Below are positions 28,855 through 30,834 of a DNA stretch of 35,162 nt, piece by piece (the first letter of the stretch is position 1; every line of letters starts with the position of its first letter). The stretch comes from a virus. Lineage: Duplodnaviria; Heunggongvirae; Uroviricota; Caudoviricetes. Both the position numbers and the translations under genes were made by a program. The stretch lies in IMG/VR virus record IMGVR_UViG_2859810971_000008, positions 1-35,162 of that record, one strand, 5' to 3'. Under the pieces are notes generated by a model. It searched no databases. It saw only the letters and a program-made list of their open reading frames with translations, and was not told the DNA's origin.

Positions 28855-28957
28855 TTTCGTTTCTACAGGTTGCCAGTGAAGGTTTTCTCCATCCCTCGCC
28901 ACCACGTCCACACATCTTGCGTGGCTTTGCAGTCGCGTGATAGTAGGATTGAAGTGG

Positions 28958-29797
28958 TCAACAAAAACTGGCCACCGAGTTAGAGTTTTTCCAGTATCGA
29001 TTTTCCGATTCGTTTGGGGGTAACCCACCGTTATATTCGTGCGGTCTTAGTGCGCTGTAATATCCAACGATATAGTCCGTTATGGCGTGAGCTGCCTCGC
29101 TGAAGCTTACGTAACCCACCACCGGCATCCATTCGTTCTTCAGACTCCTGAAGAAGCGTTCCATTGGGCTGTTATCCCAGCAGTTTCCGCGCCGGCTCAT
29201 ACTCTGTCTGATCTGGTATCGCCACAATAACTGCCGGAACTGCCTGCTCGTATAATGACTGCCCTGATCGCTGTGGAACATCACCCCGCCGGGCTTACCA
29301 CGGGTTTCCCATGCCATTTCCAGCGCTTTCATGGTGAGCCTGCTGTCCGGCGAGAACGACATGGCCCAGCCCACTGGTTTTCTTGCGAACAGGTCGAGAA
29401 CAACGGCGAGGTACGCCCAGCGCTTACCCGTCCAGATATAGGTCACATCACCGCACCACACCTGATTTGGCTCGGTCACGGCGAACTGCCTTTCAAGGTA
29501 GTTAGGGATAGCAACATGTTCATGACCACCACGTTTATACCGGTGAGTCGGCTGCTGACAGCTGACCAGCCCCAGCTCTTTCATGAGCCTGCCAGCAAGC
29601 CAGCGTCCCATCTGGTAGCCTCTCCGGGTTGCCATTGTGGCGATGCTTCTTGCTCCGGCCGAACCGTGGCTGATGCCATGTAGCTCAAGTACCTGACTGC
29701 GTAATACAGCCCGTCTGCCGTCTGGTTTTTCAGGACGGTTTTTCCAGTATCTGTAGCTGCTGCGATGAACCCCGAACACATGGCAGAGTGTGACCAC
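28958..29797 (-). CDS. IS911-like transposase OrfB (DDE catalytic domain)
   Basis: 279 aa; IS3-family OrfB sequence overlapping orfA in the -1 frame. Confidence 0.85.
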
Positions 29798-29823
29798 AGG
29801 ATAATGCGCTCTGAGTTTCCCGA

Positions 29824-30126
29824 TTATCGAGAACTGTTCAGGGAGTCTGACATCAAGAGCGCGGTAGCCTTTTTTAATATTTCATTCTCCATTTCAATGC
29901 GTTGTAGCTTTTTCCTGAGCTCACGGATTTCAATTTGTTCCGGGGTAATGGGGGAGGCTTTTGGTGTTTTGCCCTGACGCTCATCACGCAGTTGTTTGAC
30001 CCATCTTGTCATTGTGGAAAGGCCAACATCCATAGCTTTGGCGGCATCTGCCACCGTGTATTTCTGGTCAACAACCAGTTGAGCGGATTCGCGTTTAAAC
30101 TCTGCGCTAAAATTTCTTTTTTTCAT
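29824..30126 (-). CDS. IS911-like transposase OrfA (HTH / leucine zipper)
   Basis: [46 protein letters not shown]...; slippery heptamer AAAAAAG at forward 29869-29875 for OrfAB fusion. Confidence 0.85.
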
Positions 30127-30195
30127 TGGAGCACCTGTGTTGTTCTGAGGTGAGCATATCACCTCTGTTCAGGTGGCCAAATTCAGTGTGCCACT

Positions 30196-30834
30196 TCAGA
30201 TGATTTTCTTCAGGCGGCGTTTGCGTTTCTCGTTGACCGCAACAGCGTGTGGCAGTCTGTCACCGACTTCGGTGTTGTAGGCGTTCAGGAAGGATTCGTA
30301 GTCGATTCGTTCTGCCTTGCGACGTTCAGGTTTAACATGCCCATCGCCGCCCCCGTTAGGGGGTAAGGGGGTATTTGTATTTATTGTCTTTTGTATATTG
30401 TCTTTTGTGTTTAGCTGACTTGGCTTATACCCATTAGCCGACTTGGCTAATGTTTTATTAGCTGTTTTAGCTAATGTTAAGCTGTCCTGGCTAATCCACT
30501 GAGAAACCACCTTGTTCACTCCGATTTTCACGCCATCAGCAATGAGGAATTTACGCTCAATAAGCTGGCGCTTGGCAGCGCAAACATGAGTGTGATGAAT
30601 ACCTGTCATGGCTGCTATCTGCGTGTTTGTGAGTCGATCCATCGGCTTATTGAATCCGTATGTCTTGCGCATGATAGCGAGCATCACCTTCAACTGCCGG
30701 ACGGTTAAATCAGCCATCAGCAGACTGTCGGTAATCTCGTTAGCAACGCGCATGAAACCATCTTCGGTATCTGCCACGCGATGCTCCACGACCTCCAGTT
30801 GAGGCCTGTAATCAGCTAACTTAACGACGCCCAT
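30196..30834 (-). pseudogene. O: Replication initiator O (lambda O-like), C-terminally truncated at the IS911 end
   Basis: N-terminal domain similar to lambda O (…LTVRQLKVMLAIMRKTYGFNKPMDRLTNTQIA…); origin iterons lie inside the gene; the ORF ends on the TGA formed by the IS terminal TGAAGTGG, after about 50 residues of the C-terminal domain. Confidence 0.7.
30370..30495. repeat. Lambda-type replication origin: four about 18-bp iterons plus adjacent AT-rich region
   Basis: TTAGCTGACTTGGCTTAT, TTAGCCGACTTGGCTAAT, TTAGCTGTTTTAGCTAAT, TAAGCTGTCCTGGCTAAT at about 23-bp spacing (30411-30495), each an imperfect dyad, followed at 30370-30410 by an AT-rich tract. Confidence 0.7.

Follow-up and report, generated by a model that had tools for sequence, protein, structure and literature searches.

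An IS911 copy joins truncated O and Q genes in a lambdoid prophage and is flanked by GAT triplets native to two different genes

Introduction

When an insertion sequence is found between two identical short repeats, must it have arrived there by a simple insertion? IS911 is a member of the IS3 family, was first found in Shigella dysenteriae, and moves by a copy-out-paste-in route; its insertion makes a 3-bp (sometimes 4-bp) duplication of the target. An element of this kind, bordered by GAT on both sides, lies between the replication gene O and the late genes of the lambdoid prophage described here, and a segment that related phages carry at this place is missing. Thus, the locus raises a plain question. 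Is the GAT repeat a target duplication, left by an insertion into a prophage that had already lost this segment, or is the repeat a coincidence and the loss itself associated with the element? The DNA in which we ask this question is a stretch of 35,162 nucleotides (IMG/VR record IMGVR_UViG_2859810971_000008), called the window hereafter.

The window opens at the ATG of intS (1-1158) and closes with the stop codon of a torI/AlpA-like excisionase gene (34962-35162), and it has the KplE1/CPS-53-type layout, in which int and xis are located at opposite prophage ends. It also holds a long block of morphogenesis ORFs, the lysis genes S, R and Rz, and an intact cI/cro/cII region. Beside the integrase gene are two Acyl_transf_3 genes (1515-2690 and 4456-5481), which may be O-antigen or surface-modifying cargo; E. 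coli B and C strains carry a counterpart of this region with 99.2% identity.

A standard copy of IS911

The element occupies 28950..30198 on the minus strand, and end alignment, sequence comparison, ORF reading and domain search agree on a complete copy of 1249 bp, transcribed in the direction of the PR operon. Its IRR end is at 28950 and its IRL end at 30198, and the terminal sequences read TGAAGTGG...CCACTTCA, imperfect ends of the form 5'-TG...CA-3'. Direct alignment of the ends shows imperfect inverted repeats, 36 bp long, in which 24 positions agree. The right repeat (28950..28985, minus strand), whose terminal TGAAGTGG is common with IRL, adjoins a remnant of the antiterminator gene Q, and the left repeat (30163..30198, minus strand) adjoins the truncated O gene. 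It is to be noted that a repeat finder run with a 9-nt seed missed these ends, because the longest exact seed they share is only 8 nt.

All of the coding capacity expected of IS911 can be read on the same strand. The intact orfA (29824..30126) has 100 codons and encodes an HTH_Tnp_1 domain, and the A AAA AAG motif for programmed -1 frameshifting between orfA and orfB is found at 29869..29875, corresponding to IS positions 324-330. The orfB frame (28958..29875) contains the rve/DDE integrase core and would be translated as a part of OrfAB after the -1 shift; a shift at this motif gives a readable protein of 389 amino acids, whose end at 28958 is inside the IRR. Both domains are recognized in OrfAB (HTH_Tnp_1, PF01527, E=1e-15; rve, PF00665, E=5e-32). 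An element was counted as IS911 if at least 95% identical, from end to end, to a reference or annotated copy, and this copy is 99.2% identical over the full 1249 bp to PGAP/RefSeq-annotated IS911 copies of E. coli. Among 40 full-length copies from IMG/VR contigs one is identical to it, and its OrfAB differs from the consensus OrfAB of the IMG/VR copies by a single amino acid (K69E). By every intrinsic criterion tested, therefore, the element is a standard IS911 as judged from its sequence, and it is apparently functional. Terminal repeats, orfA/orfB, the A6G frameshift site and the HTH and DDE (rve) domains all agree with those of the annotated copies, and what differs from them is not the element but its context: the two flanks are non-contiguous in IS-free relatives.

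Truncated genes on both sides

What are these flanks? On the right side, comparison with intact O shows a truncated replication initiator gene (30199..30834, minus strand) that retains codons 1-212 of 273. The N-terminal Phage_rep_O domain is kept (PF04492, E=3e-33), the C-terminal 61 residues are gone, and the TGA stop of the remnant comes from the terminal TCA of the IS911 IRL, which is the last three bases of the element. A lambdoid O has both an N-terminal and a C-terminal domain, and with the N-terminal one alone O' is, from its reading frame, a truncated pseudogene. The O flank is 99.8% identical to that of many E. coli prophages, 99.4% to that of HK446 and 99.3% to that of HK97.

On the left side, the 232 bp at 28718..28949 (minus strand) are the 3' remnant of Q; as far as the breakpoint, they agree at 99% with the intact gene of NZ_CP027205. 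The remnant keeps residues 98-172 (75 codons) of a 172-aa protein, and the first 97 codons are missing. A full-length antiterminator of the DUF1133-type 'antiterminator Q family' has about 172 amino acids, of which residues 98-172 only are encoded here, and the DUF1133 match is weak, below the Pfam threshold, and limited to the C-terminal end of the profile. At 28718-28723 the remnant runs two codons (W, P) beyond the position of the Q stop in two E. coli relatives before it reaches its own stop, a short lengthening of the C-terminus of a gene already out of function. Further along is the Q-S intergenic region (28128..28717, minus strand), which is kept upstream of the holin gene S and is 98-99% identical to CUS-3 and Huey throughout. 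A promoter and a terminator are annotated under this match in HK629 and HK75, and we take the stretch to carry, in related phages, the late promoter PR', the qut site and the tR' terminator. The holin gene itself is at 27804-28127 (minus strand, from the ORF list), and lambda-like S, R and Rz ORFs come after the intergenic region.

The joint thus reads, at the level of sequence, O'-IS911-'Q, and Q is truncated, not absent. A sequence-only reading of the window had described an IS911-like element with intact inverted repeats, a complete orfA/orfB with a slippery site, and GAT on both flanks, and all of this is borne out by the repeats, the coding frames and the identity given above, with the triplets seen at 28947-28949 and 30199-30201. 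It had also placed the element at the junction of O and the late region. This is right for the O side and needs correction on the left, where the last 75 codons of Q stand; Q, which it had counted as lost, is still present from residue 98 to residue 172.

Each GAT belongs to its own gene

The left GAT (28947..28949) is native Q sequence and the right GAT (30199..30201) is native O sequence, as comparisons with the intact genes reveal. In the IS-free Q of E. coli WCHEC025943, the sequence is ...GATAGTAG GAT GCAATTG..., that is, GTAG-GAT-GCAATTG around the breakpoint, and in the IS-free O of E. coli UTAK-1 it is ...GTTGCGG GAT GATTTTC.... Since each GAT is native to its own gene in IS-free relatives, neither of them had to arise by insertion. 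A 3-bp duplication would place the same triplet on both sides of IS911, and GAT is indeed on both sides, yet each copy belongs to a different gene. A simple insertion has another hallmark: removal of the element and one repeat should restore an uninterrupted sequence known from relatives, and here the sequence obtained in this way is absent from 5,426 E. coli genomes and from viral, genome and metagenome contigs.

How surprising is it, then, that two unrelated breakpoints share three bases? At the composition of the window, a random 3-mer match has p=0.017 (about 1 in 60). Intact O and Q in fact have the 5-mer GGATG in common at the breakpoints, for which a random match has p=0.0012 (about 1 in 800); the one additional matching base on each side of GAT contributes a further factor of 1/16, which alone is not significant. 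The segment missing here contains, in a relative, 5 further GGATG and 105 GAT sites. From these comparisons, our best reading is that the GAT repeat is not a demonstrable target duplication, and that the shared bases would be adequately explained by chance.

The segment between O and Q in relatives

In E. coli UTAK-1, a single prophage combines an O matching that of the window (99.8%) with a Q of the same type (97.5%); it has no IS at the two breakpoints, which are 5,346 bp apart in it. The interval contains the 3' end of O, a DnaB-type helicase gene (the equivalent of P), ninB/E/X/F, an antirepressor gene, rusA, ninH and codons 1-97 of Q. Strain 2013C-4991 has head genes, lysis genes and O in common with the window, and there Q, nin and helicase genes lie in between, with another allele of Q. 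Compared with such intact phages, the orientation and order of O' and 'Q in the window are unchanged. A closer IS-free relative was sought among sequenced phages, and this search returned mosaic relatives only, none of them better than the E. coli prophages.

The sequence-only reading had set a simple insertion against an IS-mediated adjacent deletion, and had named an observation that would speak for the latter: an IS-free relative in which the flanks are separated by P, nin and Q with no GAT at the equivalent joint. As to the first half, the flanks are indeed apart in IS-free relatives, by the O 3' end, the helicase gene, nin and the 5' part of Q (5,346 bp), and this falls on the side of deletion. 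The second half does not hold, for a native GAT is present at each flank. Thus, the choice between the two is made by probability, with both flanking GATs native, and it goes to deletion.

Searches for the empty joint and for precursors

If the backbone had lost the segment before IS911 arrived, an IS-free joint should have existed, and its reconstructed sequence is GTGATAGTAGGATGATTTTCTTCAGG. The empty joint is found in none of 5,426 complete E. coli genomes, where the two halves never occur together, and a query made of the Q flank, the IS and the O flank detected neither junction in any of these 5,426 genomes. Exact-pattern scans with GCAGTCGCGTGATAGTAGGATKR and MRGATGATTTTCTTCAGGCGGCGTTTGCG, which match the empty joint or an IS junction and exclude the intact genes, found no empty joint and no IS junction in viral, genome and metagenome contigs. 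The fusion protein that the IS-free joint would encode from O' into the Q frame had no match covering its tail among the 15 candidates retrieved from a large protein collection, which is a weak negative.

Precursors with a single insertion can be recognized by their junctions. If IS911 had first entered O, CAGTTGCGGGAT directly followed by TGAAGTGGTCAAC would be seen together with the right junction of the window, and if it had first entered Q, GCCACTTCA directly followed by GATGCAATTGCTCGC together with the left junction. No precursor of either kind, with IS911 in O or in Q alone, was found in the complete E. coli genomes and three contig collections. A translocation or reciprocal product would be marked by ...TTTCAGTTGCGG(GAT) or (GAT)GCAATTGCTCGCTTAG beside an IS911 end, and the IS911 copies with the window's OrfA variant that a look-up found in two other genomes border neither the missing O 3' end nor the missing Q 5' end. 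One locus (L004) considered as a second copy of the junction was rejected; it is an intact O variant reading GGAATGATT.

Is the joint itself reliable? An exact look-up of the O' protein gave matches in two places, CP026810.1 and one contig of ERR200328. The former, a finished chromosome of 4.53 Mb, contains the window at 100% identity and is thus its source. The latter is a 2730-bp contig of an independent short-read assembly (Logan), which starts inside IS600, ends inside the left repeat of IS911, and is 99.96% identical to 30173-32901 of the window. Since this contig ends at the same O'-IS911 junction, the junction is real, and it is common to at least one other isolate, as are both IS junctions around the immunity region.

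IS911 at other sites

How often does IS911 keep a target duplication? We collected 58 distinct full-length sites, 47 from IMG/VR contigs and 11 chromosomal ones from two further genomes. A 3- or 4-bp duplication at the same boundaries is present at 12 of the 47 contig sites and absent from the other 35, and among the chromosomal sites 6 of 11 have one and 5 do not; altogether, duplications accompany 18 of 58 copies and 40 have none. The mostly mismatched flanks in these prophage-rich and IS-rich contexts (loci L003-L122 and L127-L136) imply frequent rearrangement after insertion, and copies with flanks of different origin form the commonest class of IS911 contexts in the sample, to which an IS-associated deletion would belong. 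The 18 duplications vary in sequence, with a single GAT among them, and a preference of IS911 for GAT or G-GAT-G as a target was rejected on this ground.

IS911 is reported to target sequences that resemble its inverted repeats. In the UTAK-1 sequence (L002), IRR-like matches of 13/20 are found at 693-712, on the deleted Q side and 37 bp from the breakpoint, and at 6028-6047, in the retained O flank (around 30225-30244 of the window) and 26 bp from the breakpoint. About 11% of random 101-nt windows reach the same score, and the joint p of about 0.01 is post hoc. IR-targeted insertion was rejected as an explanation, as the matches do not abut the breakpoints and 11% of random windows score equally.

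Two other loci of this type may be described here. In CP034931.1, an IS-dense genome with many IS911 copies, a copy with the same OrfA variant (within L129, 6001-7620) is located directly upstream of a 140-aa DUF1133 (Q-family) ORF, with Rz1 on its other side and without target duplication; it is another IS911-bounded break beside a Q-type gene. In E. coli LHM10-1 (NZ_CP037903.1; L126, 3147-4761), a Q gene of the type seen in the window is cut short by ISEc52, a relative of IS911 with an identity of about 96%. The break is about 213 bp further towards the Q start than that of the window and the other flank is unrelated DNA; here, too, and independently, a prophage ends at Q with an element of the IS911 group.

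How the joint may have arisen

Taken as a class, deletion associated with IS911 with a coincidental repeat is in our judgement quite probable. It needs only a coincidence of 1.7e-2 (1.2e-3 if the 5-mer is counted), compared with about 1e-4 for an insertion exactly at a pre-existing joint, and on these figures it leads by at least two orders of magnitude. Within the class, we give about an even chance to a single IS911 followed by a transposase-mediated adjacent deletion, as far as can be judged from the anatomy of the locus. In this scenario, IS911 would first have been inserted into O or Q of an intact lambdoid prophage. An intramolecular transposition, via a reactive IRR-IRL junction in a circle or a tandem dimer, would then have been directed into a site about 5.3 kb off, with loss of everything from the IS end to the newly chosen target, namely, the O 3' end, the helicase (P-equivalent) gene, the nin region and Q up to codon 97. 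The native 3 bp would thereby have been retained at each flank, and they happen to be GAT at both. The order of these events and the involvement of transposase are what we infer, beside the anatomy of the joint, the native GATs, the missing segment and the lack of an empty joint in the collections searched, all of which are seen directly.

We prefer the single-element adjacent deletion because both endpoints lie at IS termini and because such events are known from the literature on IS150 and on IR-IR junctions. In the window, both deletion endpoints coincide exactly with the IS911 termini: native Q stops at 28949, native O stops at 30199, and the element between them is intact, which is the arrangement that an adjacent deletion leaves. 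For the IS3-family member IS150, adjacent deletions made up 14 of 83 events in long-term evolution lines, all from a pre-existing IS and none with a duplication (PMC11708052). Copy-out-paste-in elements give rise, through their IR-IR junctions, to deletions that begin right at the border of the IR, and IS911 is one of the dimer-forming elements (PMC9333248). The 'IS-del' events of IS150 in the Lenski lines and the IR-IR deletions of the IS30/IS911 type resemble our case in that the endpoints are at IS ends, the loss is in the kilobase range and the IS remains intact. The window differs from them in two respects. The reported events leave no repeat, whereas the native flanks here share 3 bp (5 with their neighbours), and the precursor insertion, that is, an IS at the same position with undeleted neighbouring DNA, is not observed for the window in E. 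coli genomes and contig collections.

Another possibility is that two IS911 copies in the same orientation, one in O and one in Q and each with a GAT duplication, recombined in a RecA-dependent manner with loss of 5.3 kb, leaving one hybrid IS. Its end product would be identical to that seen, and the type of host is rich in IS: many IS911 copies are found in CP034931.1, and IS911 is expanded in Shigella (PMC7373316). The finding that most IS911 copies have no duplications is an outcome expected of IS-IS recombination as well (PMC11708052). What makes us consider this route somewhat unlikely is that a second insertion is required no more than 5.3 kb from the first, with equal orientation and again at GAT, which amounts to the same 1/60 coincidence plus an extra event, and that no genome with either of the single insertions was found among the complete E. 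coli genomes and contig collections.

A backbone deleted in advance is an improbable starting point. An IS-independent deletion between GGATG in O and GGATG in Q, for which the shared 5-mer could have acted as microhomology, would have been followed by insertion of IS911 at the joint with duplication of GAT, and the flanks do fit a true 3-bp duplication. However, the IS must then strike one of about three positions in a 35-kb prophage (about 1e-4), the IS-free joint is absent from E. coli genomes, from viral, genome and metagenome contigs and from the protein collection, and the other GGATG (5) and GAT (105) sites in the missing segment leave nothing special about this pair. Slightly more doubtful still is a rearrangement with the P-nin-Q5' segment elsewhere beside another IS911, or an assembler jump across a repeated IS: rearrangements of this kind are a typical risk of IS-rich genomes, but O' and 'Q keep the orientation and order of intact phages as a deletion gives, the source is a finished chromosome, and the ERR200328 contig independently ends at the same junction.

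Finally, it is hardly to be expected that the breakpoint identity is other than chance, with IS911 choosing its second target under guidance of sequence and with GGATG present in both O and Q. Under such a reading, the 3-nt IRR-IRL spacer copied from the old flank could steer integration or repair to a 3-mer that matches it, and the IRR-like matches at 26 and 37 bp could point to sequence-guided targeting. If it were true, it would be an unrecognised rule of target selection for intramolecular events in the IS3 family.

Two IS-bounded gaps and the fate of the prophage

IS911 is not the only element that borders the immunity region. On its other side, sequence comparison identifies a 1264-bp copy of IS600, also of the IS3 family, at 32876..34139 on the minus strand, and a lambda-type N gene ends at this copy after 31 codons. 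It is bordered by AAA on one side and GTG on the other, without a target duplication. As these flanks differ, rearrangement rather than simple insertion is indicated, and at IS600 the PL operon would have undergone a rearrangement or deletion, which agrees with the deletion read from the IS911 joint. Five IS have expanded in every Shigella species, and both IS600 and IS911 belong to them (PMC7373316); taken with the 4.53-Mb chromosome, this may point to a Shigella or EIEC host.

What has become of the prophage by these two events? In lambda biology, loss of N, Q, the C-terminus of O and the helicase means no antitermination and no replication. All of these are gone here, and therefore the prophage should be unable to antiterminate, to replicate or to switch on its late genes; it would stay fixed in the chromosome, and with it the genes for repressor, lysis, morphogenesis and acyltransferases. 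The IS-degraded cryptic lambdoid prophages of Shigella and E. coli (KplE1/CPS-53) have the same intS-to-torI layout, acyltransferase cargo genes and essential regulators destroyed by IS. In contrast to these, morphogenesis and lysis genes of the window are apparently complete and cI/cro/cII is intact, and the decay therefore looks recent and limited to two IS-bounded gaps.

The structure as a whole is a known one, IS-mediated adjacent deletion and IS-driven decay of a prophage, usual in Shigella-type lineages and nothing new in kind; only the 3 bp common to its native flanks, or 5 with their neighbours, are out of the ordinary. For annotation, the lesson is that a short repeat around an IS is no proof of a simple insertion. 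For the prophage, IS911 and IS600, flanking the immunity region, would have cost it the replication genes and the antiterminators Q and N, and would have turned it into a fixed chromosomal island.
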